64,000 nt of DNA from Candidatus Hydrogenedentota bacterium (GTDB lineage Bacteria; Hydrogenedentota; Hydrogenedentia; Hydrogenedentales; SLHB01), in the NCBI GenBank assembly GCA_963745075.1, contig CAVUWV010000023.1:1-64000 (forward strand), read 5' to 3'. A program made the position numbers and the translations under genes. The notes beneath the pieces are model-generated. The model had not been told where the DNA came from and ran no database searches. It worked only from the letters and a program-made list of their open reading frames with translations. Below, piece by piece: positions 32,162 through 52,778 of this stretch (position 1 is the first letter of the stretch; each line of letters starts with the position of its first letter).

Positions 32162-32385
32162 GGCGCGACCGCGTTACCGGGCAGGAACGGCAACCAGAAG
32201 GTGAAGGCGCAGTAGAAGACGAGCAGTCCGGCGAACCCGGCGGCGATCATGGCAATCATGCGTCGATCGCGGGAATCCGTGAGATCGAGGTAGCCGCTGC
32301 TCACGCCGCACCAGATACCGATGGCGCAGAGCACGGCGCCCATGCCAAATTCAACGACGATTGGTAATACGCGTTCGATTCCCAT
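32158..32385 (-). CDS. Small 2-TM protein coupled to the SSS gene
   Basis: ATGA overlap with the symporter start; two hydrophobic helices. Confidence 0.7.
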   Translation of the reverse strand: MGIERVLPIVVEFGMGAVLCAIGIWCGVSSGYLDLTDSRDRRMIAMIAAGFAGLLVFYCAFTFWLPFLPGNAVAP

Positions 32386-32467
32386 GGTCCGCCCGCCCCT
32401 CTTGCCCACACGGTGGAACGGGTTGGATGATAACGGCTGCAAACGGGATGGCGCAAGCCCTCCCCTT

Positions 32468-32523
32468 TTCGTAATCGTAATCGGTCTTCCGTTGGGATTT
32501 GGTGCTTCGATTACGATTACGAA
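32468..32523. repeat. 16-bp perfect inverted repeat built from the CGATTA hexamer
   Basis: ttcgtaatcgtaatcg - 24 nt - cgattacgattacgaa. Confidence 0.85.
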
Positions 32524-32632
32524 CGGGAGGGAGAACGGTAACCCGCAAACCTTCGGTCACGGGCGCTGTTGTCACGGAGCGGGCGTTGTGTACAATGGCA
32601 CGTTTGAAGGCTCGCAAGGGAGTATTAGCTTC

Positions 32633-35331
32633 ATGCTTACCGTTTTTGCCGCTATGTTGATTGCATCGCAGTCCGCGCTGGGGGCCGTGGTCGAAGAAGA
32701 CACGGAGGTCCAGGGGACGTATACCACATTTCGCGTGGCGCCGGAGGCCGGTGCAGGCGTGGAATGGTTCGGCTCGTCCGTTTCCAAAGTGAACAACGCG
32801 GGCGGCGAAGGGCTGCTCCTGGAAGGGTTCGGCGTCGGCAATTTCTACGTGCCCAACCGGCGGTTGAACGAGAAGCTGGAAGTCGTCGATTCCATCACGG
32901 ACCGGCCCGTGCTGCGGTACAGCTACGACTGCGACGGTCCGAACATCCGCGGGCTTCGCGTGACGCGCACGATGGAACCAATGCCAAACGAAGCCTCGAT
33001 TCGGGTGACGTGGAAAGTCGAGAACAAGGGCGACGAAGATCAATGGGTCGCGCCGTGGGTACGTAACGAGATCCGTCCCGGCGGGACCTTCGAGGTGCGG
33101 GATCGCATGGAACTCGCCACTTGGGAAGGCATCATCAATGCCCAGCGGAGCGGATACCACGTGGCATCACGCAATTGGGTGGCCGCAACCGACCCAGCGG
33201 TGAAGGAAACGCTGTACGCCGTGTTCGATGCGGACCAGACCCATTCCTTTCTCGCGGAACGCAACGAGGACGCGCCGTTTTGTGCCTTTCAGACCGCCTT
33301 CGTCCCGCGGTTGATGAAGGCCGGTGATGCGTTCGAGACGGTATACCGCGTCAACGTGGTGCGCGGACTCACCCACGTCAACTTCGCGACGGACGAATTG
33401 GCGGCGCAGGTCGATTATGAAAACGATACCTTGAGTCTGCTGCTCGCAGCGGTGAAACCCATGCCGGGACTTCCAGATCGAAGTGAGTCTGCTTGCGGCC
33501 AACGGCAAAGTCTGGCATCTGCCAAAAAAGAAGTTCGACATCGATCCCAATACCGATCATTCGGTGCAGCTACGACTGGAAAGCGCCCGGCGACGGGACC
33601 TACCAATTGCTGGCCCGGCTCACGCGGGACGGAGATGCCGTCGCCCTCGGCAAAGACACCCATTCCCCCCACGGCGGTATCGACACGCAGTTCACCGTCG
33701 GCGATGGGAAGCCCGACGATTTCGAGCCGTGGACCGATGCGCCCTTCGCGCTCGAACGCGGATCGCGCACGCTGAAACGGCAGTTGGCGATTCCCGGCGA
33801 CACGGCGATCTGGTTCGAGAGTTCGCTCGAGAAGATTTTCCCGGAAGACGTGCCTCAGCGGGTGGGCGAATACCGGGCCATTGCAAACCTATCGCTGGCC
33901 GCGAACGAGAGCGAGTCGTTCCAGGTGGTACTGCGGCCGCCGAAGGGCGGTGACTGGCGCAACGTAAACGTGCGCGCCATGGATCTGGTGAACGCGGAGG
34001 GCGGTTCGCGCATCCGCGCGTCAGACATCGCGCTTCACACGGTGGCCTATTATCCGGTTCGGATTCCGACGCACTTCGAAGGCCCCACGGGCACGTGGCC
34101 GGACGCGCTGCCCGATTTGGAACCCTTTACCGCACCGGGTGGGAAATCCAGTCCGATCTGGATCACGGTTCAGGCGCCCGCGGGCACGGCGCCGGGGAAC
34201 TATGAGGGGTTTCTGGAGCTGACCGCGAGCGGCCGCGATCCGATTGAGTTGGGATTGCGCGTCACGGTGTACGATTTCGAGTTGCCGCAGACACCGAAAC
34301 TCAAAACCGATTTTGGATTCTGGAAGGAAGAGGCGGAGACGCTGTGCAAGCGCATGGGCTACGCGGGCGGCACGGAACAACTCTTCGACGCGTATCTCGA
34401 AAGCGGGCTCGATCATCGCGTGACCTTGCGCGGGCTGTGCCAGTTTCCGGCGGAGAGCGCGGACTACGAGGCGAGCCTGGCCGCGTACGAGCCGAAATTA
34501 CGCGACCTCCTGAACCGAGGCGCCAGCACCATCGCCGTACCCGCGTCGTTGCTGGACGTTCCCGAGCAGCTTACCCTGGCGAACGCATTCGTCGAGAAGC
34601 AGAATGTCGGGGATCGGGTGTTCTGTCAAATCGCCAACGAGCCCGAGCGACCGGCGTGGCCGCGCCTGTTCGAAACCATGCAGCAGTGGCGGGAACTCGC
34701 GCCCAACATCCCGCTCATGTTGACGACCTACGGCACGCAACCCTTCTTCCACGAAGCGGCGGACATCTGGGCCGTTCATTCGCCCGTGATGGACACGGTG
34801 AACAACCGCACCATCCTCGATCGAATCGCCGCGGGCGGTGCGGTGTGGTGGTACGTGAACAACACGCCGCCGCGACCCTATGCGAATTTCTTTGTCGATT
34901 TCGCCGGCATCGAGCATCGTATCTTCTTCTGGCAAACCTGGGCGTTGGGCATTCAGGGCGTGTACTACTGGAACGCGAACTACAGCGAACCCGGCGTGAA
35001 TCCCTGGGTCGATCAGCTCGACATTACGCCGACCAACGGCGACGGATTCCTGATCTATCCCGGCCCGAACGGTCCGGTCAGTTCCATCCGCTGGGAAATC
35101 ATCCGCGACGGGATCGACGATTACGACTATCTCGTCCTCTTTCGCGACCGCATGAAGAAATTGGAGGAGCAAGGCGGGCATGAAAACCTGCTTAAACAGG
35201 CGGCGGAAGTCTACAACCTGAAAGAACTCGTGCCGGATTTGGTTACGTTCTCGCGGGACCCGAACGTCCTGCTCAGCAAACGCGACGCGTTGGCCCGGAT
35301 GATCGTGGCGATGGATAAGGTGTTGAAGTAG
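32633..35331 (+). CDS. Large secreted protein with C-terminal DUF4091/GH123-like domain, frameshifted around 33475-33560
   Basis: Signal peptide; NESESFQVV, WPDAL, VWWY, GVYYW, NGDGFLIYPG, SSIRWEIIRDGIDDYDY. Confidence 0.8.
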
Positions 35332-35390: not shown

Positions 35391-36551
35391 TTATGCCGGC
35401 GTAATTCGCCCGAGCACCACGGGTTGTTGTGCGCCGGTGGCGTGGGGGACGTTCGAGGCGTTGCCGCAGAAGAGTTCGTTGCCGAGGATGGCGGCCCCGA
35501 TTGGATCAAGCGACATATGGGGAAGGCCGTAGTCGTCGCTGATGCGGACGGTGATGTCGCCGAGGCCGCTTTTGACGCGCTGGACCAGGGCCTTGTTGTT
35601 CACGCCGCCGCCGCTGAGGATGACGCGGGAGACTTTGTACTGCGGCTTCACGAAGCGGTTGTAGGCCCTTACGATGCAATAGCTTACGGCGGAGGTCACG
35701 GTCGCCATCAAGTCGCCGAGCGAATGTTCCGTCCGCCCGACGAGGGCGTCGCGCAAGTAGACCTCGGGACCGAATTCGTCGCGGCCGGTCGTCTTGGGCG
35801 GCACTTTCGCGAAGTACGGGTGGTCGAGGAGGAATTCGAGAAACTCGTCGATCACAACGCCTTTCGCGGCGGCTTCGCCGTCCTCATCGATTTCCTGGTT
35901 TCCGCTGGTGATATGCCGTACGGCGCCGTCAATCACAACGGTGCCCGGTCCTGCGTCGAAAGCGATCGATTCATCGAAGTTCGGCGTGATGACGGAAATA
36001 GTACTGATGCCGCCGAGATGGATGCGGGCGACGGACCGGTCTTCGCGGGAAAAGAGCACGTAGTCCGAGTACGTGAAGATAGGGCCGCCCTGTCCGCCGG
36101 CGGCCATGTCGCGCGCACGGAAGTCGGATGCGACCGGGAGTTCGGTTCGCTCCGCGATGATGGCCGGTTCGCCGACCTGCAACGTCCCGATGGCCTGATC
36201 GTAGCCGCGGGGCGCGAAATGGGCGACGGTAAAGCCGGTCGAGGCGACGAAGTCGACTTCGCACATCTCGGATTGGGCCAGGCGGATCATCTCTTGTGTG
36301 GCGTCGGCGAGAAACTCGCCCAACTCGAAGTTCAGGAGACAGACTTCCCGCACGTGTTTCTTGCCCACGATGAGCCGCGTGCGGAGTCCGGATGGGTACG
36401 GAAAATGACGGGACTTAATGAGCTTGATGTGCAGCCCGTGGCCGCTGCCTTTGATGCGCACGAGCGCCGCGTCTACCCCACGCGCGGCAGTCCCGCAGGT
36501 CAGCCCGATGGCGAACCGCGTCGCTTTACGTGAAATCGCCTGGAAAAGCAT
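35391..36551 (-). CDS. anmK: Anhydro-N-acetylmuramic acid kinase-like protein (divergent motifs)
   Basis: DFRARDMAAGGQGGP, FDAGPG..ID, PPKTTGRD, GGGVNN; in an operon with murQ. Confidence 0.85.
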   Translation of the reverse strand: MLFQAISRKATRFAIGLTCGTAARGVDAALVRIKGSGHGLHIKLIKSRHFPYPSGLRTRLIVGKKHVREVCLLNFELGEFLADATQEMIRLAQSEMCEVDFVASTGFTVAHFAPRGYDQAIGTLQVGEPAIIAERTELPVASDFRARDMAAGGQGGPIFTYSDYVLFSREDRSVARIHLGGISTISVITPNFDESIAFDAGPGTVVIDGAVRHITSGNQEIDEDGEAAAKGVVIDEFLEFLLDHPYFAKVPPKTTGRDEFGPEVYLRDALVGRTEHSLGDLMATVTSAVSYCIVRAYNRFVKPQYKVSRVILSGGGVNNKALVQRVKSGLGDITVRISDDYGLPHMSLDPIGAAILGNELFCGNASNVPHATGAQQPVVLGRITPA

Positions 36552-36584: not shown

Positions 36585-38297
36585 TTAGTTCAGGGAATCG
36601 AGCAAGGCGCTGCGGAAGTAGTGCAGCACAATGTCCCGGTACCCCGCGCCGGCCAGAGCCATACCCCGAGCGCCATACTGACACAATCCTACCCCATGGC
36701 CGCGTCCGCCGCCAACAAAGGTAAATGCGACCGGCCCCTGTGCCCCCGATTCGGTCCTTATTTGTATCATGGCGCTGGGCAGCCCGCCAAATGCCTGGCG
36801 TATAGGCAGTTCCTTCCGGATGGTCACGGTACCCCGAGTTCCGGTGACTTTGACCCATTTCAGCCGGCCGCTGACGCCCCGGTCGCCGGACTCGATGGCG
36901 CGAACGGTGCCCACGGCATAACGTTGATTGACCGATCGGGTCACCTCCGCCACGGTCAGGCGGCGGGACCACCGAAACCCCTGGGGATCGCTGCTGCAGA
37001 AGGCATTGGGCTGTGATTGCAACCACTTAGCGAGATTTGAGGACGGCGTCGCGGTGGGGATGGTGCCCCGGGGGAAGTCGGCCACCCCACGCAAGCTCAT
37101 ATTCGGCGGGGACGACCACACGGCATCGTTGTCCTCCGTCCAGCCACCGCAATTCGAGCTGAACACGGCCGGGATGATTCGGACGCCATCGGTGAGCACC
37201 TGTCCCCGCGTCGCGGCAACAGCGGCGTCGGTGGAGGGCTGGCGTCCGCTGTATCCGGCGTAAACCCGATCGCCTTCGCTGTTCGTGAAATTGAACCCGG
37301 CGAGGATATGCTTCAAGGCCAAATGGGTGAGAACGTCGCTACGCGCGGCAACGGCCTGCGCTTTCAACGCTTCCAGCGGCCAACGGGCGGGCATCTCCGC
37401 GGGCAGCACCCCGGCGAGGTAATCCTCGACAGAGAGGGTCTCGTACACGCCGAGCGTCGCGTCGGGCTCGACGGAAAGGTCCAACACGCCCGCGTACGAT
37501 GCGCCGGTGCGGTCGCCGGGTTGGGTGATCCGGATCGGCGCAGACGAGGTGATGCGGACCGGTAGCGGCCATGTCATAATATGTCCTTCGGCGGATTTGG
37601 CAACGACGGACCCCGTGCCATCGAGGATGGTTTCGGGCCGAATCCACGTCCACACGCCCTCGCGTTCCAACGCAGCCTTCAAGGAGATGGCCTGCCCCTC
37701 TTGCTCGAACCGTTGGAGCGAGATCCACTGTTCACGTCCGTCCAGAATATGGCCGTCCGCCGTTCGATACCGGGTTCCCATTGCGACGGGTTTTGCAGGA
37801 TAGCCCTGCGCTTTCCAGGTATCCAGGAAGGCTGACATTTCGGCCGTTTCCTGGGGCCGGAAGGTCTTGATGAAAACATGAAAATGCTGACGGGGCGGGG
37901 TTGCCTGGGCGAGCGTGACGGTCCATGCGTTGCTCGGCAAGTTGATGGCGCCACCCGCGTGCTCGACGTGGAGCGTCGCCGTGCCGCGAATCCCGACCTC
38001 GCGAATCCCGTGAAAGAGGCGAATCCGGACCGGCGGATTGGCGGATGTCGTAAGTTCTTCGGGTTTCGGTTGCGCGACGGGTTCGGGCGCGGGTTTCGGA
38101 ACGACGGGCGGCACCGCCACGCTTGGCGGCGGGGGAGGCGGTTGCGGTGACCGGCAACCGGTCCACGCGATGCAGACTAGAAAGATGAAGAAGATGGCAC
38201 ATGGACGGACAAACGAATGCCGTTTGGGTCGTACAGCGTTACTGACGATGTACCGTCGAGAGTACGAGTGAAACACCTGTACCTGGACTCCACACAT
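36585..38297 (-). CDS. SpoIID/LytB lytic transglycosylase-family lipoprotein
   Basis: Lipobox WTGC; Pro-rich linker; YLAGVLPAEM..EALKAQAVAARS; GHGVGLCQYGA; start uncertain (the ORF extension to 38618 is repeat-derived). Confidence 0.9.
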   Translation of the reverse strand: MCGVQVQVFHSYSRRYIVSNAVRPKRHSFVRPCAIFFIFLVCIAWTGCRSPQPPPPPPSVAVPPVVPKPAPEPVAQPKPEELTTSANPPVRIRLFHGIREVGIRGTATLHVEHAGGAINLPSNAWTVTLAQATPPRQHFHVFIKTFRPQETAEMSAFLDTWKAQGYPAKPVAMGTRYRTADGHILDGREQWISLQRFEQEGQAISLKAALEREGVWTWIRPETILDGTGSVVAKSAEGHIMTWPLPVRITSSAPIRITQPGDRTGASYAGVLDLSVEPDATLGVYETLSVEDYLAGVLPAEMPARWPLEALKAQAVAARSDVLTHLALKHILAGFNFTNSEGDRVYAGYSGRQPSTDAAVAATRGQVLTDGVRIIPAVFSSNCGGWTEDNDAVWSSPPNMSLRGVADFPRGTIPTATPSSNLAKWLQSQPNAFCSSDPQGFRWSRRLTVAEVTRSVNQRYAVGTVRAIESGDRGVSGRLKWVKVTGTRGTVTIRKELPIRQAFGGLPSAMIQIRTESGAQGPVAFTFVGGGRGHGVGLCQYGARGMALAGAGYRDIVLHYFRSALLDSLN

Positions 38298-38314
38298 TTC
38301 CGGTCTGGCGGGTC

Positions 38315-38524
38315 GCCCCGAAGGGGCCGCAACATGACAGCCCAGCGCAACGCCCTGGGTAAAGGACGGACAAGAAGATAGAGCCCTGAAGGGGCGTAAC
38401 AAAGATGCGAAGGACGCGGCGGACATTGCAATTGTGTTGTAGCGCCCTTTCAGGGCTTCGCCTAATATGCGATACCAGCTACCCAGGGCGCTGCGCTGGG
38501 CTGTCGTGTTGCGGCCCTTCGGGC
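38315..38524. repeat. About 210-bp nested palindromic REP/MITE-like element (family B)
   Basis: gccgcaacatgacagcccagcgcaacgccctgggta..agccctgaaggggcg / cgccctttcagggct..tacccagggcgctgcgctgggctgtcgtgttgcggc. Confidence 0.85.
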
Positions 38525-38595
38525 CAGAATGTGGAAGGTCCGGGCGCGGGCGAGTACTCCGCTCGGCGAAAGGTGATTGCAAGCCGGTTGACTCC

Positions 38596-39462
38596 CTAAT
38601 CCGAATCCAGCGCGGCACGCAGGTTTCCTTTCGCGTTTATCAGTCGTGCTTCGGCCGTCTCGCGCGGAAGATTCAAGCGCGCCATGAGAACCGCCACCGG
38701 AATGCTATCGCCTGCCGTCTCCAAAAGTTTCGTCGCCGAGGTCTCGGTTTCACTCGTCAATGCGGCGACGATGCGGACGGCCCGTTCGCGGAGCTTGGCA
38801 TTCATGGGACGCACGCCGACCATGTACCCCTCGAACACGCGGCCGGACAAGGCCATTGCGCCGGTCGAGATCATGTTCAAGACCAGCTTGGTCGCGGTGC
38901 CGGCTTTCAGGCGCGTGGAGCCCGGCAACACTTCGGGTCCGGTGTCGAGGGCGATGACGCAATCGGCGGTGGCGGAGACTGTCGGGTTGCAGCACAGGAG
39001 GGCCGTATGCGCGCCGGACGCTTTGGCGTGATGCAATGCCGCGAGGACGTAGGGCGTGGTGCCCGATGCGGCGATGCCCACGACCACGTCGCGATCGTTG
39101 AGTTCAGGGGCGAGTGCATTGAGGTTCGCGACGGCGGCGGATTCGTCGTCTTCAGCGCCTTCGCCGCTCATGCGGAGTGCCACTTCGCCGCCCGCGATCA
39201 TTCCGACGACTTGTCCAGGGTCCACGCCGAAGGTCGGGGGGCATTCGGAGGCGTCGAGCACACCCAAGCGCCCGCTGGTCCCCGCGCCGATATAGATGAG
39301 ACGGCCGCCGGCGTTGAATGCGTCCGCGACCCGTTGCACGAGTTTCGCGATGGTGGGAAGCGTGTCCGTGACAGCTTCGACGGCTTCGTGGTCTGCCCCG
39401 GACATGCGGGCGGCGATGCCTTCCGCGGTCAACGTGTCGAGAGGCGGTTCGTGCGTCGCCAT
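38596..39462 (-). CDS. murQ: N-acetylmuramic acid 6-phosphate etherase (probably the C-terminal half of a kinase fusion)
   Basis: GAGTSGRLG, DASECPPTFG, GAED, GPEVLPGSTRLKAGTATK. Confidence 0.95.
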   Translation of the reverse strand: MATHEPPLDTLTAEGIAARMSGADHEAVEAVTDTLPTIAKLVQRVADAFNAGGRLIYIGAGTSGRLGVLDASECPPTFGVDPGQVVGMIAGGEVALRMSGEGAEDDESAAVANLNALAPELNDRDVVVGIAASGTTPYVLAALHHAKASGAHTALLCCNPTVSATADCVIALDTGPEVLPGSTRLKAGTATKLVLNMISTGAMALSGRVFEGYMVGVRPMNAKLRERAVRIVAALTSETETSATKLLETAGDSIPVAVLMARLNLPRETAEARLINAKGNLRAALDSD

Positions 39463-40457
39463 CGATTCCGTTCGGGGAGATCGGGCGAAGTGCCGACCGC
39501 GCCAACGCGAATGTCGGAAACGAACTGCGAAGCCGTTGGTTTCGCCAGGAGGCGCATACTGGCGCGGGTGCCTTCGAATGGCGTTCGTTTCACTTCCGAC
39601 GGTAACACCACTTCGTTCTGACCGTCCTTCATAGCCGATTCAAAGTGGGCAATCCATTCCGGAAGGGCGGTAAACACGCCCCCGTGAACGAAGACCGGCG
39701 CAGATTCCGATAGTCCTGTTTCATGAGCCGCACTTGCGGCGAGCACGAGCAGATCGGTGAAAGATTCGGAGACGCACTCATATGCGGCGTCGTCGAGATC
39801 GCGATAGAGCGCGATAACAGCGGGTGCGAGTGCAGCTACTTCGTTCTTCGTGGCGCTCCTCGACCAACCGATCAGTTCAGAGAACGTCTGCAATCCGGCG
39901 GCCTCCGGCAACGATTCGATCAGTTTGGTTGGGCCGCGCAAGCCGTCGAGCGACGCGGCGGCCGCGCGTAATGCCCGGACGGCGATGTCATACGCGCTGC
40001 CCGCGTCGCCGAAGAGCGTGCCGCGTCCGCCGAAGATTCGCGGTTTTCCTCCGGCCGTCTTCGCAATAACACTGGACCCGGTGCCGGCGATGACCACCAT
40101 CCCTTCGGCGTCGCCGACGTTTGCGTGGAGCAGGGTATCCACATCGCTGGCAACAACGGCACGCCGCACTTTGAGTGTTTGGACCAAGCCCATCGCAATG
40201 GCATTTCGAAGCGTCTCGTTGCGCGCGCCGGAGATGCCGGCTGCCACGTCGCATGAGGATGCGTCACATTCTGCGAGAAGTTGCGCCCCAAGCCGGGACA
40301 AGGTGCGCAAGGTTCGCGGTACGCCGATTTCTACGGGATTGGAAGGGCCCCCGGTCGCGTCGGCCAATTGATTCCCGTCGGCTTCGTACAAGGCGGCGCG
40401 GGTCGTCGTGCCGCCGCCGTCGAAGGCGAGATATACCGCGGCGTCCCGTCCGGTCAT
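39429..40457 (-). CDS. BadF/BadG/BcrA/BcrD-type GlcNAc/MurNAc kinase (MurK/NagK-like)
   Basis: AFDGGGTTT, GPSNP, IAGTGS, GGRGTLFGDAGS; ATG 40457 overlaps the GH1 stop. Confidence 0.85.
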   Translation of the reverse strand: MTGRDAAVYLAFDGGGTTTRAALYEADGNQLADATGGPSNPVEIGVPRTLRTLSRLGAQLLAECDASSCDVAAGISGARNETLRNAIAMGLVQTLKVRRAVVASDVDTLLHANVGDAEGMVVIAGTGSSVIAKTAGGKPRIFGGRGTLFGDAGSAYDIAVRALRAAAASLDGLRGPTKLIESLPEAAGLQTFSELIGWSRSATKNEVAALAPAVIALYRDLDDAAYECVSESFTDLLVLAASAAHETGLSESAPVFVHGGVFTALPEWIAHFESAMKDGQNEVVLPSEVKRTPFEGTRASMRLLAKPTASQFVSDIRVGAVGTSPDLPERNRWRRTNRLSTR

Positions 40458-41754
40458 GGCACCCTCGTGGCGGCGCCGGGCGCGAACTTGTCCATGGTAC
40501 CCGGCCGAAGTGTTCCCGTCTCGCAGAATGTCCTTGAAGAAATAGGCGCTGGGGTTGGGGGTTCGAGCCAGGGTTTCGCGATCCACATGGACCAGGCCGT
40601 AGCGGGCCGAGTATCCGTCGATCCACTCGAAGCCGTCCAGAAAGGACCGATGCAGGTAGCCGCGCACGTCAATCCCGTTGGCTATTGCCTCGTGCAGAAC
40701 GTCGAGATGGCGGGCGATGAACGAGCAGCGTTCGCTGTCATCGGCCGTATTGACGCCGTTACCGGCTACGAGCAGCGGCTTTTCGTATTGGGCAAGATCC
40801 TTCAAAACGTCCCACAAACCTTCCGGAGCGACGTTGTAGATGCCCGGTCGAATCGCATTGCCCGCGGAATCCGTAGCAGAGCGGAAGAATTGCAGTGGTT
40901 TACCCGCATGGAACCGCACGGTTTCTTTGCCGAAATACGATACGGCGATAAAGTCGGCCGCACCGCCGAGGCGACGCGCCCCACCCAGGGGGAATTGCGC
41001 TTCACCCCGGCACAAAGCGTCCGGGAACACGTTGTTTGCGCGATGCATTTCCCGGCGCGCGGCGCGGAGGTCCCATGCGTTTTCGACGCTCAGCGGAACG
41101 CAGTTCCGCGCGCGGACCGAAACACCGACTTCGGCGTCGGGCTGGATCCGATGGATGATCTCATAGCTCTCCGCGTGGGCGTGCAGGAGATGATTGAGCG
41201 CGGCGTAGCAGGACCAGAAGGCAGTTTTTCCGGGAGGCCACAACCCTTCCAACCAGGCCATGGTGACCAGATGCTCGGGCTCGAACAGGGGAATCCATCG
41301 CGTGCACCGGTCGGCCATGGCTTCCACCACGCGTTCAACGAAACGGGCGAATACCTCCGGCGAATCTCGCCGCGACCAGCCGCCCTGCGACGCAAACCAG
41401 GCCGGCAGGGTCACGTGATTCAGCGCGCAGATCGGTTCGATGGCGCGCCGCGCAATGGCGTCCGCAACTTCGGCGTAGTGGACCAGGGCGTCGCTGTCGA
41501 ACCGATCCGGTTCGGGCTGCACGCGGCTCCATTCGATGGAGAAAAGGTGCGCGTTGTGTCCCAGCTTGCGCGCGAGTTCGAAGTCGCCTTCATAGTGCTC
41601 GAAATGTTCCGATGCCCGGCTCGACGTGCCGGCGGTCGGCGATGCGGCCCGGACGCTGTTCCCAGCGCCACCAATCCGACGCGAAATTGCCGCCTTCGAC
41701 CTGGTACGCAGACGTAGTGGCGCCCCAAAGGAACTCTTTCGGAAAGGTAATCAA
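40454..41754 (-). CDS. Glycoside hydrolase family 1-like protein lacking the catalytic nucleophile; frameshifted
   Basis: GAGGAG RBS plus TTG; FPKEFLWGATTSAYQVEG; FSIEWSRV; HVTLPAW; FEP; VAGNG; DGFEW..GYSARYGLV. Confidence 0.85.
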
Positions 41755-41835
41755 GCGGCACTCCTCACGGCGCGAACGTGGCGTGACAACGGCGTTGTTC
41801 AATGGTAGCATGGCCGTGCCGGTTGGAGGAAACAC

Positions 41836-42783
41836 ATGACGGACGGCGAGATCATCGTGCTCATGGCCTTGCTGCGCATTCCGGGCGCGGGCAACATGGC
41901 GGCGCGCCGGGCGGTGGCACTGGCAAAGCACCTGGTCGTTTCGCTGCACGAATTGCCGGAAATCCCCGCGCGGGAATTGCTGGAGCGGTTTCCGTCCAAC
42001 CAAACGGACCAGCTCGCGACACTGCTTCCTCAATGTACGGCGGTTGCGCAGGTGCACGAAGGGCGCTTTCTCGACCGTGTGCTCCACTCGGGCGCGCAGG
42101 TGATTACGTGCGCCGACAACGACTACCCCGAATCGCTCGCGCGTGACTTGGGCAACCGTGCGCCTGCCTTGCTTTTCCTCGCCGGCGACCGCGAATTGCT
42201 CGAAGCACCGGCGGCCGCCGTCGTCGGCGCGCGGGATGTGAGCCGGCGTGGTTCGATTCTGGCCGACGAAACGGCGGCAGCGTTCGCGCGGGCAGGAGTC
42301 GGCGTCGTCAGCGGCGGCGCGACGGGCGTAGACACGGCCGCCCATGCCGCGGTGCTGATAAACGGCGGTAAGACCGTCGTTGTGTTGCCGCAAGGGCTCC
42401 TCACCTTTCGTGGCTCGCGAGAACTGTTGCAGGCCGTGGAAGACGGACGCGCCGCGATCCTCAGCGAATTCCTCCCGGACATGACGTGGCAGACCCACGC
42501 GGCCGTGACCCGCAACGCGACCATCAGCGCGTTGGCGAATCTGGTGTGCGTCATCGAGCCGAAGAAACAGGGGGGCAGCGTGCGTACCGCGCGGTACGCC
42601 ATCGAACACGGAAAACGGGTGTTGGTGTATTGCGACCCGCGTCACCGCGATCTCGCGGATACGTTGACCCGGGCCGGCGCCGGATCGTTGCTTGACGCGG
42701 ACGGACAGTTCGATGCGGAATACCTGCTCGACCAGTGGAATACCGCCCCGACACCGGCCGGCGGACAGGCGGAACTGTTCTAA
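41836..42783 (+). CDS. dprA: DNA-processing protein DprA/Smf
   Basis: DYPESL, AVVGAR, VVSGGATGVDTAAH, RNATISALA, GGSVRTA. Confidence 0.88.
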   Translation: MTDGEIIVLMALLRIPGAGNMAARRAVALAKHLVVSLHELPEIPARELLERFPSNQTDQLATLLPQCTAVAQVHEGRFLDRVLHSGAQVITCADNDYPESLARDLGNRAPALLFLAGDRELLEAPAAAVVGARDVSRRGSILADETAAAFARAGVGVVSGGATGVDTAAHAAVLINGGKTVVVLPQGLLTFRGSRELLQAVEDGRAAILSEFLPDMTWQTHAAVTRNATISALANLVCVIEPKKQGGSVRTARYAIEHGKRVLVYCDPRHRDLADTLTRAGAGSLLDADGQFDAEYLLDQWNTAPTPAGGQAELF

Positions 42784-50830: not shown

Positions 50831-52778
50831 TTACTCCGCGTGGACCATCAAGTCTGCCACGAGTTTTGCGAACTGCCCGGGGTTGGGCGGCTGATTGCCT
50901 TCGGCGAGGGCGGCTTGACCGTAAAGCAATTGGGCGTAGTCACTTAGGCGACTATCCCGGAATCCGCCGTATAGATCGATTCCAGGCGCTCCAGGATCGG
51001 GTGATTTGGATTTAACTCCAGGATTCGCTTCGTCTTAGGCACATCCTGGTTGGCGGCGCGCATGAGCTGCTCCAACTGGGGGCTCATGTCGAACTGATCG
51101 CCAACCAGGCATGCGGCCGAGTTGGTCAGGCGCGTAGAAAGACGGACCTCTTTGACGTGTTCGTCGAGGTGTTGCTTGAGGCATTCGAGGAGGGACTTGT
51201 GCTCCTCCTCCTTGGACTTGAGGTCTTCTTCGGCTCTTCTTCCGTTCCTCTTCGCTCCCGAGCTCGACGGTGCCCTTACCGACGGATTGGAACTTCTTTC
51301 CGTCGAACTCGAACATGGACTGGGTCCAGAGTTCATCGACGTTGTCGGTCAGGATCAGGACTTCGTAGCCTTTGTCGCGAAACGCTTCCAGGTGGGGCGA
51401 GTTTTCGATGGCCGCGCGCGATTCGCCCGTCATGAAGTAGATGGCGTCCTGGTCCTCCTTCATGCGGTCCTTGTATTCGCGCAACGACGTGAGGGCGGAC
51501 GAATCGTCCGTCGACTCAAACAGCATGAGGTCGAGCAACGCGTCGCGGTTGTCGTTATCCTGGTACAAGCCCTTCCTTCAGAACCGGCCCGAATTCCTTC
51601 CAGAACGACAGGTACTTGTCCTTCTCCGTGTCGCGCATCTTCTTGAAGGAATCCAGCAGCTTGTTGATGACGCCTTTGCGAATGCGCTGGATCTGCCGGT
51701 TCTGCTGAAGGATTTCGCGGGAGATGTTCAGCGAAAGATCTTCGGAATCGACGACCCCCTTGACGAAGCGGAGGTATTCAGGCAGCAGTTCCGTGCAGTC
51801 GTCCATGATGAAGACGCGCTTCACGTAAAGTTGGATGCCGCGGCGGCCTTCCCGCATGTAAAGGTCGAACGGCGCGCGCGCCGGAAGGAAGAGGAGCATC
51901 TGGTATTCCAGCGTACCCTCGATCTTGGCGCGTATCGTCTCCAGCGGCGGCGTCCAATCGTGCGACACGTGCTTGTAGAATTCCGTGTACTCTTCCTCCG
52001 TGACCTCGTCCTTGTCGCGGAGCCAGATGGCCTTCATCGAGTTGAGGGTCTCGATTTCGACGACCGTTTCTTCCTTCGCGCCCTCAATGGGTTTTCCCTC
52101 GTCGTCGCGGGGGACCTCGGTGCGCGTGATCTCCATCTTGATGGGATAGGCCACGAAATCGCTGTATTTCTTGACGATTTCGCGGATCTTCCACTCCTGC
52201 GTGTAATCGTGGAGACCGTCCTCCGAGTCCGCTGGCTTGAGGTGCAGGGTAACGCTGGTGCCGGGTTCAGGGACATCGACTTCCTCAAGGGTATACGTGC
52301 CTTCCCCGGAGGACTCCCAGCGGACGCCGGCGGTCTCGCCCGCATGACGCGTGACGAGCGTGACCTTGTCGGCCACCATAAATGACGAATAGAAGCCCAC
52401 GCCAAACTGCCCAATCATCTCGGGCGAGTGCGCTTCCTTGGCCTGTTTCAACGCGGCCATGAACTCGCGGGTACCGGATTTGGCGATGGTGCCGATGAGA
52501 TCGATGACGTCCTGACGCGTCATCCCGATCCCGGTGTCGCGAACGGTCAAGGTGTGCGCGTCCGAATCGGCCTCGATAAAGATGTGGAGGTCGGTGCCTT
52601 CCGGCATGAGATGGGGCTCGGTCAGGGATTGAAACCGGCGCCGGTCGAGGGCGTCGGAACTGTTGGAGATCAGTTCCCGCAGGAAAATGTCCTTGTTCGA
52701 ATAAATCGAGTGGACCATAAGGTCCAGGAGTTGGCGTGCTTCCGCCTGAAACTCGAAAGTCTCGGCCGTGGTGCTCAT
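50831..52778 (-). CDS. htpG: Molecular chaperone HtpG (Hsp90), frameshifted
   Basis: FQAEARQLL, IFLRELISN, IGQFGVGFYS, LNISRE; C-terminal LELNPNHP and LYGQAALAEG in other frames. Confidence 0.95.

Follow-up and report, generated by a model that had tools for sequence, protein, structure and literature searches.

Domains of glycoside hydrolase family 1 (GH1) that have lost their catalytic nucleophile are already known from animals. The KL domains of Klotho and beta-Klotho, GH1 folds each without one catalytic Glu, are presented as binding proteins in an excerpt of PMC11696049, and domain II of lactase-phlorizin hydrolase is removed in maturation as part of a chaperone pro-fragment, as described in excerpts of PMC7658089 and PMC6412902. 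The closest enzymes in sequence and fold to the gene described here are GH1 beta-glycosidases of the type of BGPh from Pyrococcus horikoshii (1VFF). The nucleophile has also been replaced by Gly through engineering, both in glycosynthases, which keep the rest of the pocket, and in a GH1 trans-N-acetylglucosaminidase. NagZ (GH3), NamZ and the AnmK-MurQ route, which share pathway and gene neighbourhood with our gene, belong to different fold families, and we know of no GH1 that is a member of the AnmK-MurQ recycling route. Here, we describe GH1*, a nucleophile-less GH1 gene in the first 64,000 nucleotides (hereafter, the window) of contig CAVUWV010000023.1 from a Candidatus Hydrogenedentota bacterium (assembly GCA_963745075.1). 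Its product is a GH1 protein by sequence and fold, yet it lacks the nucleophile Glu that defines a GH1 enzyme. Judging from sequence comparisons, we consider it probable that this is a catalytically dead cytoplasmic barrel (a pseudo-glycosidase), retained under purifying selection as an accessory (a binder or a regulator) of an operon for the salvage of anhydro-N-acetylmuramic acid (anhMurNAc), N-acetylmuramic acid (MurNAc) and N-acetylglucosamine (GlcNAc).

GH1* matched the Pfam model PF00232 (E = 5e-57), and its best sequence match was 1VFF (E = 5.6e-69). The AlphaFold2 model of P0001, a full-length relative of 432 residues that is 82% identical to the window protein and colinear with all three of its frames, was a confident GH1 barrel (predicted local distance difference test score of 94.7), with a template modelling score of 0.88 to 1VFF at 33% identity; the structural comparison proposed in an earlier note on this DNA bore out the family assignment. 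Only GH1 models matched GH1*, neither the fold nor the motif of the GH3 enzyme NagZ being found in it, and the ESM Atlas returned generic GH1 clusters only. No signal peptide was seen by eye in the six clade proteins with long N-termini, and no second full-length GH1 match was present in the window's own genome. The gene and the positions discussed below are listed here in window coordinates; alignment positions on 1VFF were counted from the sequence alignment, and residue numbers such as E351 and W398 follow Thermotoga maritima BglA.

40454 to 41754, minus strand: GH1*, about 432 codons, spread over three frames by two one-base insertions, colinear with P0001
41644 to 41676, minus strand: clade-specific, near-invariant loop DWWRWEQRPGR (no changes at E32 and Q33, two at R34)
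41544 to 41546, minus strand: Leu replacing Arg77, which normally partners the nucleophile (Arg in 1/101 clade members versus 44/44 canonical sequences)
41280 to 41285, minus strand: F-E, with the acid/base Glu (41282-41280, opposite E155 in the NEP of 1VFF) kept and the Asn before it replaced by Phe
41112 to 41114, minus strand: Arg on beta5 (SVR), top covariation partner of the acid/base Glu and its possible salt-bridge partner
41070 to 41075, minus strand: clade-specific W-D motif (W227 98%, D228 99%) that opens the helix following the long beta5 strand (helix 226-249 in the P0001 model)
40938 to 40940, minus strand: Ser replacing N293 (AVSYF instead of GxNYY)
40761 to 40763, minus strand: Gly codon at the nucleophile site, opposite E324 (TENG) of 1VFF and equivalent to E351 in BglA numbering
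40647 to 40649, minus strand: Arg replacing the sugar-stacking Trp398 (HRS instead of YWS or HWS)
40623 to 40637, minus strand: DGFEW, the only well-conserved remainder of the -1 pocket (E405, W406), with N403 replaced by Gly
41628, no strand assigned: extra base causing the first frameshift, identified from relatives and an independent contig
40500 to 40530, no strand assigned: second frameshift (at about 40527), which deletes the GH1* stop and yields an apparent GH1-kinase open reading frame (ORF) of 697 residues (39429-41522)

The core frame of the gene (41633-40527, minus strand) encodes FEP, AVSYF, LLVAGNG and HRSFLDGFEW, and the N- and C-termini lie in other frames. At 40775-40755, the codons are CTG CTC GTA GCC GGT AAC GGC, i.e., L-L-V-A-G-N-G. 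The earlier note had read this motif in place of TENG, together with FEP and DGFEW, as in-frame substitutions rather than indel artefacts, and all of these readings were confirmed. Since the three motifs share one open frame and four relatives of the same genus read TGNG or AGNG, written with different codons, the Gly is not a sequencing slip; in the sequencing runs examined, no read covering the nucleophile codon was found, and the runs listed as containing this sequence included none of RNA.

For phylogenetic analysis, we added the window core and 40 genome loci to 120 of the 265 matches of the homologue search and removed 13 near-duplicates at 95%; among these sequences, the nucleophile Glu was absent in 104 and kept in 44. 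Clade counts refer hereafter to the 101 sequences without Glu that exceed 300 residues, and the canonical comparison set to the 44 with Glu. As a split based on Glu uses the trait itself, the grouping was tested on trees from which the pocket columns had been removed. All 101 sequences still formed one clade with no Glu-bearer inside (Shimodaira-Hasegawa-like approximate likelihood ratio test support of 100 for a subsample of 26 rows), nested among bacterial and archaeal-type GH1s. The xGNG motif, whose conservation the earlier note had left to an alignment of homologues, is conserved (Gly in 85, Ala in 9 and Glu in none of the 101), and no clade member reads TENG. In a collection of named genomes, Glu was absent at 47 loci out of 79, kept at 31 and not covered at one; the 48 clade loci were mostly labelled Candidatus Hydrogenedentota, and the few other labels (some Nitrospirota, one Bathyarchaeia and one Rhodothermota) would appear to be mislabels. 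When 1.84 billion representatives were searched with a profile, the 139 new rows among the best 150, inspected by eye, contained no Glu-bearing protein with the EQRPGR and WD pair. Outside the clade, six prokaryote-type GH1s (P0167, P0233, P0190, P0155, P0159 and P0127) had lost either the nucleophile (replaced by Ala, Ser or Ala) or the acid/base together with a W398R change; P0127 consists of two GH1 repeats in tandem, the second of them degenerate.

The pocket around the nucleophile has been rebuilt as well. The window protein has lost R77, N165, N293, W398 and N403; among its -1 residues (Q20, R77, H121, N165, N293, Y295, W398, E405 and W406), only Q, H, E and W are kept, and L, F, S, F and R stand at the other five positions. 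Across 37 canonical sequences (tree length 16.4), no change was found at Q20, R77, N165, E166, E351, N352, W398, N403, E405 or W406; the corresponding numbers in the clade (101 sequences, tree length 60.2) were 35, 18, 46, 19, 13, 27, 26, 8, 7 and 5. Rates were near average at Q20, H121, N165, N293, Y295, N352 and W398, and slow only at N403G, E405, W406 and the new Gly. Trp398, present in 44/44 canonical sequences, occurs in none of the clade members, which carry Arg (57/101) or Tyr, Glu, His, Gln or another residue (44/101). The acid/base Glu is kept in 71 of the 101 and underwent at least 13 changes on the tree, its replacements being Arg (8), Asp (7), Thr (6), Ala (4) and others (5), and the residue before it is mostly Leu, Tyr or Phe. 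Newly fixed in the clade are E32, Q33, R34, W227 and D228 (P0001 numbering).

Charges in this pocket tend to vary together. The Arg on beta5 was the top covariation partner of the acid/base Glu (z = 7.9; present in 60 of 71 Glu-bearers), and the pair of acid/base Glu and Arg398 ranked 189 among 81,426 pairs. Where the acid/base is Arg (8 sequences), site 398 is Glu, and the reverse also holds; five of these eight have Glu on beta5 too, and the swap between the acid/base and site 398 required three changes by parsimony. Net pocket charge was 0 or -1 in 80/101 clade members versus -2 in 43/44 canonical sequences.

The limits that the earlier note gave to the gene are its true ends, a TTG start at 41754 and a TGA at 40456-40454 that overlaps the ATG of the kinase gene, although two one-base insertions, which that note does not mention, break the gene in between. 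P0001 and P0004 run through both break points, so the window carries one extra base near 41628 and another near 40527. An independent contig (run X4, about 99% identical) matched 41629-41868 with two differences and continued without base 41628. In relatives, the GH1* stop falls 11-36 residues past the matched region, and frame 0 fits the C-terminus of P0001. Both insertions are probably assembly errors, with read support for the first one only, and the 697-residue GH1-kinase "fusion", which has its own protein record at NCBI and ENA (P0138), is thus probably an artefact. As a genuine fusion, it was rejected as an indel product, since relatives have a stop between the two genes. Three further frameshifts were found in the same assembly, one at the kinase-MurQ junction and two, near 33470-33550, in a GH123-like gene (32321-35331). 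An HtpG-like gene recognised by eye (50944-52778) is split across three ORFs, and the assembly is indel-prone.

These breaks raise the question of whether GH1* is simply a decaying pseudogene or an assembly artefact without function. Such an origin would agree with the two frameshifts in the window copy, with the occurrence of GH1* in only 32 of the 61 genomes of the order (the window's own included), and with a decayed remnant in genome G060 (L092:1893-2426), which lies upstream of a kinase-MurQ gene with an internal stop of its own. However, none of the 32 orthologous loci in relatives contains a stop within the matched region (the G035 locus was returned as two pieces by one search and as a single piece by another), and the ratio of nonsynonymous to synonymous substitution rates was 0.09-0.26 in eight of nine pairs (the ninth being saturated), which shows that GH1* is under purifying selection and not decaying, contrary to a proviso of the earlier note. 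The additional frameshifts in neighbouring genes and the near-identical contig without the first extra base also argue against decay. For the family, this explanation is largely refuted, and we give it hardly any credence.

Downstream of GH1* lie genes of cell-wall sugar salvage, and upstream a divergent gene:

38596 to 40457, minus strand: BadF/NagK-like amino-sugar kinase fused to MurQ etherase (MurQ above the NCBIfam cut-off, the NagK model below it), with a third frameshift at 39474-39489
36585 to 38618, minus strand: SpoIID/LytB lytic-transglycosylase-like gene, whose true start is probably later than 38618
35391 to 36551, minus strand: AnmK anhydro-MurNAc kinase (Pfam above cut-off, NCBIfam equivalogs below)
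41836 to 42783, plus strand: dprA, divergent, which stays next to the locus whether or not GH1* is present

At the 32 orthologous loci, which come from 31 relatives and were mapped by tblastn (some contigs end early), GH1* is followed by the kinase at 24, MurQ at 23, AnmK at 20, SpoIID at 16 and any of these at 28; a divergent dprA is present at 20. Stop and start codons overlap at 18 of the 32 loci (ATGA at 13, TGATG at 5). Kinase and MurQ form a single ORF of about 610 residues in relatives, and this natural fusion, split by an indel in the window copy, was aligned from 42 loci (e.g., L034:5848-7707). In the overlapping named set, salvage genes were found near 39 of the 48 clade loci versus none of the 31 canonical loci, several of which have short flanks; unlike GH1*, the 1VFF-type enzymes almost always keep all 13 pocket residues.

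GH1* is nonetheless dispensable. AnmK occurs in 61/61 genomes and MurQ in 49/61. Where a genome has no intact GH1*, dprA directly abuts the kinase, without a gene in between, at 11 of the 20 kinase-MurQ loci, which indicates that the pathway runs without GH1* and without a stand-in at that place. NagZ or NamZ as a non-orthologous replacement in the GH1* slot was not seen. A fusion of a beta-lactamase domain to NamZ (about 735-750 residues; L079:6450-8699, L080, L081, L043 and L083) was observed near the salvage operon in five genomes, four without GH1* (G016, G021, G028 and G034) and one with it (G049). In three genomes (G048, G055 and G059), dprA remains divergent to the locus even where anmK alone remains.

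This last gene also bears on the idea that GH1* is a non-catalytic protein with a job unrelated to cell-wall sugars, sharing the promoter only: dprA, too, stays at the locus without an obvious pathway link. Members of one subgroup (G006a, G033, L143, L146, L147 and L163) lie outside the operon, G006a and G033 being divergent to a galactokinase gene. At most loci, however, GH1* directly precedes the operon on the same strand, overlaps the next gene at 18/32 and does so in several families of the order, and we consider an unrelated job very improbable. In the subgroup itself (L020 and L053, from G006a and G033, with the four L loci just named), Arg-Arg occupies the N-E positions and Glu occupies site 398.

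We think it probable, by analogy, that GH1* works as a non-catalytic binder in the manner of Klotho or of lactase domain II, with which it shares the S/G/R/G set. Klotho differs in that it is an animal membrane co-receptor for FGFs, with no operon and no link to the cell wall. After loss of the nucleophile, the arginines gained on beta5 and at site 398 would offset the charge of the remaining glutamates by pairing with them, leaving the pocket neutral; the old acid/base would become structural, and hence free to drift or to swap charge, and conservation would shift to E405/W406 and to the new loops (EQRPGR and WD). More speculatively, GH1* might bind an amino sugar or its phosphate, or dock on the kinase-MurQ fusion or AnmK, and in this way tune or organise the salvage flux. 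In archaeal GH1s, Ala mutants at the His and Trp398 positions affect activity, as stated in an excerpt of PMC11376072.

Several observations weigh against a dead protein of this kind. The covariation of acid/base Glu and Arg was not significant on independent pairs, a test with little power (4 pairs, median p = 1), and because the swaps also stem from few events, the salt bridges are suggestive only. The acid/base Glu is kept in 70% of the clade and changes more slowly than 70% of sites, and E405 and W406 are among the slowest 16%; residual chemistry in a core group that includes the window would also fit these slow sites. There is no universal neighbour either: at 4/32 loci none of the four genes was found, and three others have SpoIID and AnmK without kinase-MurQ. 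Finally, weak activity is reported for Klotho in an excerpt of PMC11696049, although glutamates are missing there.

Taken together, explanations in which GH1* is still a catalyst appear to us considerably less likely than the binding role. The first of them makes GH1* a substrate-assisted exo-beta-N-acetylglucosaminidase in place of cytoplasmic NagZ, which would split the GlcNAc-anhMurNAc released by SpoIID, the BadF kinase then acting on GlcNAc and AnmK on anhMurNAc; Gly would leave room for an oxazoline, and the kept Glu would be the acid/base. It may apply to the Glu-keeping core, window included, only. In this established pathway, cleavage of GlcNAc-anhMurNAc is the single step for which the operon offers no enzyme. 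Moreover, no NagZ exceeded the NCBIfam cut-off in 61/61 genomes, no GH20 was found in the window's own genome (89.7% complete), and the sole NagZ-like motif of that genome belongs to a protein whose N-terminus resembles a signal sequence. Of all the evidence, this gap is the most favourable to the earlier note. Substrate-assisted hexosaminidases (GH18/20/84/85) likewise have no enzyme nucleophile, and the conversion of a GH1 into a trans-N-acetylglucosaminidase (Andre-Miral 2015, PMID 25378480), cited as a reference in an excerpt of PMC7014002, is a precedent.

The evidence on the other side comes from the pocket and from the genomes. None of the 101 clade members has Asp, Asn or Glu at the site adjoining the acid/base, although a residue elsewhere in space might take that part. 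Such a residue, which polarises the acetamido group, is a feature of substrate-assisted hexosaminidases, and the engineered GH1 of Andre-Miral (2015) reportedly carries N163D/E338G, with Asp added before the acid/base; the hydrophobic residue of the clade is the opposite of N163D. The acid/base Glu is itself not invariant and has changed to Arg, Thr and Ala, among others. In the best GH3 match per genome (43 of the 61 genomes), the strict NagZ motif, KH(F/I)PG(H/L)GxxxxD(S/T)H, was equally rare with GH1* (4/27) and without it (3/16), and genomes without GH1* have no substitute in its slot. Cleavage could also take place outside the cytoplasm, through NamZ and an exported NagZ-like GH3; in the window's own genome, a frame of 753 residues away from the operon matches NamZ (G000:C9:3174-3773), and an exported-looking NagZ-like GH3 is present as well. 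We therefore regard a NagZ substitute as unlikely. The amino-sugar specificity guessed in the earlier note agrees with the BadF-MurQ, SpoIID and AnmK genes of an operon that the note had not recognised, whereas its hexosaminidase mechanism is weakened by the missing polarising residue, the drifting acid/base and the dispensability of the gene; among its three options, the non-catalytic binder fits best.

The GH3 proteins deserve mention in their own right. The exported candidate (G000:C8:33171-34010) appears membrane-anchored, with a LysM-like tail seen by eye, and contains KHxPG. In the best GH3 matches (L189-L228), the catalytic D-S/T-H was absent in 23/43 genomes and the strict motif kept in 7/43; they may represent another pseudo-glycosidase in the wall metabolism of the lineage.

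A second catalytic explanation invokes an external nucleophile, with phosphate or a small carboxylate held in the cavity that the change from Glu to Gly opens and that Arg398 lines. With phosphate, GH1* would be an inverting phosphorylase giving an alpha-sugar-1-phosphate; with a carboxylate such as formate, acetate or D-lactate, the last being a product of MurQ, a retaining hydrolase. GH1 mutants with Gly at the nucleophile are chemically rescued by formate or azide. The frequencies of Gly (85/101) and Arg398 (57/101) point in this direction, a new cation beside the gap being suited to an anion site. So does the convergence with lactase domain II described below, which is hard to obtain by drift alone (0.001-0.005 as a rough product of single-step probabilities). 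On the other hand, an external nucleophile needs an invariant acid, which the clade does not have; Arg398 is replaced in 44/101, and only 24/101 carry the full set of four signature residues. The changes from E to G, W to R and N to S are each single transitions, and N403G is also found in an intact-looking GH1 domain (8IN1). We judge this explanation improbable. Run in reverse, such an enzyme would be the natural synthase of the earlier note, which is unlikely because a synthase needs the remainder of the -1 pocket intact, and this donor pocket is mostly changed.

The convergence came to light in the profile search, whose matches also included a bird protein named lactase/phlorizin hydrolase, one frog protein and two multi-domain proteins of invertebrates. 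In the bird (P0121, 379-857) and frog (P0146, 342-819) proteins, the second repeat contains FHEP, SHY, AGNG or TGNG, and RSLxDGFEG, and thus shares N293S, E351G, W398R and N403G with the window protein. Domain II and mollusc lactase-like repeats have the signature xxHHESYGNRGEG, compared with QLHxESYGNRGEW in the GH1* clade; in both, the acid/base is kept and R77 is lost. Lactase domain II differs in being a secreted multi-domain pro-fragment rather than a single cytoplasmic domain, in having Gly at W406, and in having Asn, not Arg, on beta5. The bird and frog domains grouped with eukaryotic GH1s, and a horizontal or common origin was rejected by the approximately unbiased test (p = 6.8e-05; 28 rows, 15 pocket columns removed, tree without Klotho domains). 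By these comparisons, the four substitutions arose independently in the two groups. The rough mutational estimate given above concerns a pattern noticed after the fact, and the three single transitions and the 24/101 members with all four residues speak against reading much into the match. The simplest account would be that both groups retired a GH1 pocket by the same structural route; a bolder one, that GH1* and lactase domain II have a ligand in common. Bolder still, GH1* would split GlcNAc-anhMurNAc without a protein nucleophile, with the acetamido group of the substrate, or else a phosphate or carboxylate held by Arg, in its place, and the pocket shared with lactase domain II would be a real ligand or catalytic site; we hold this to be rather doubtful.

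In the open-access literature, we found no description of a lineage-wide bacterial subfamily of nucleophile-less GH1s in a cell-wall salvage operon, CAZy annotations lying outside this search. Databases label these proteins beta-glucosidases, so the cellulolytic potential credited to these genomes is inflated. If GH1* is dead, it would be an accessory factor new to peptidoglycan recycling and would provide a clean series of bacterial pseudoenzymes with natural charge swaps. If it is active, it would represent a GH1 mechanism so far only engineered, and should nucleophile-free catalysis prove true, the bacterial single-domain protein would be a model for the site of vertebrate lactase domain II. 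Either way, the convergence allows the purpose of the pocket in lactase domain II to be tested in a small soluble protein.

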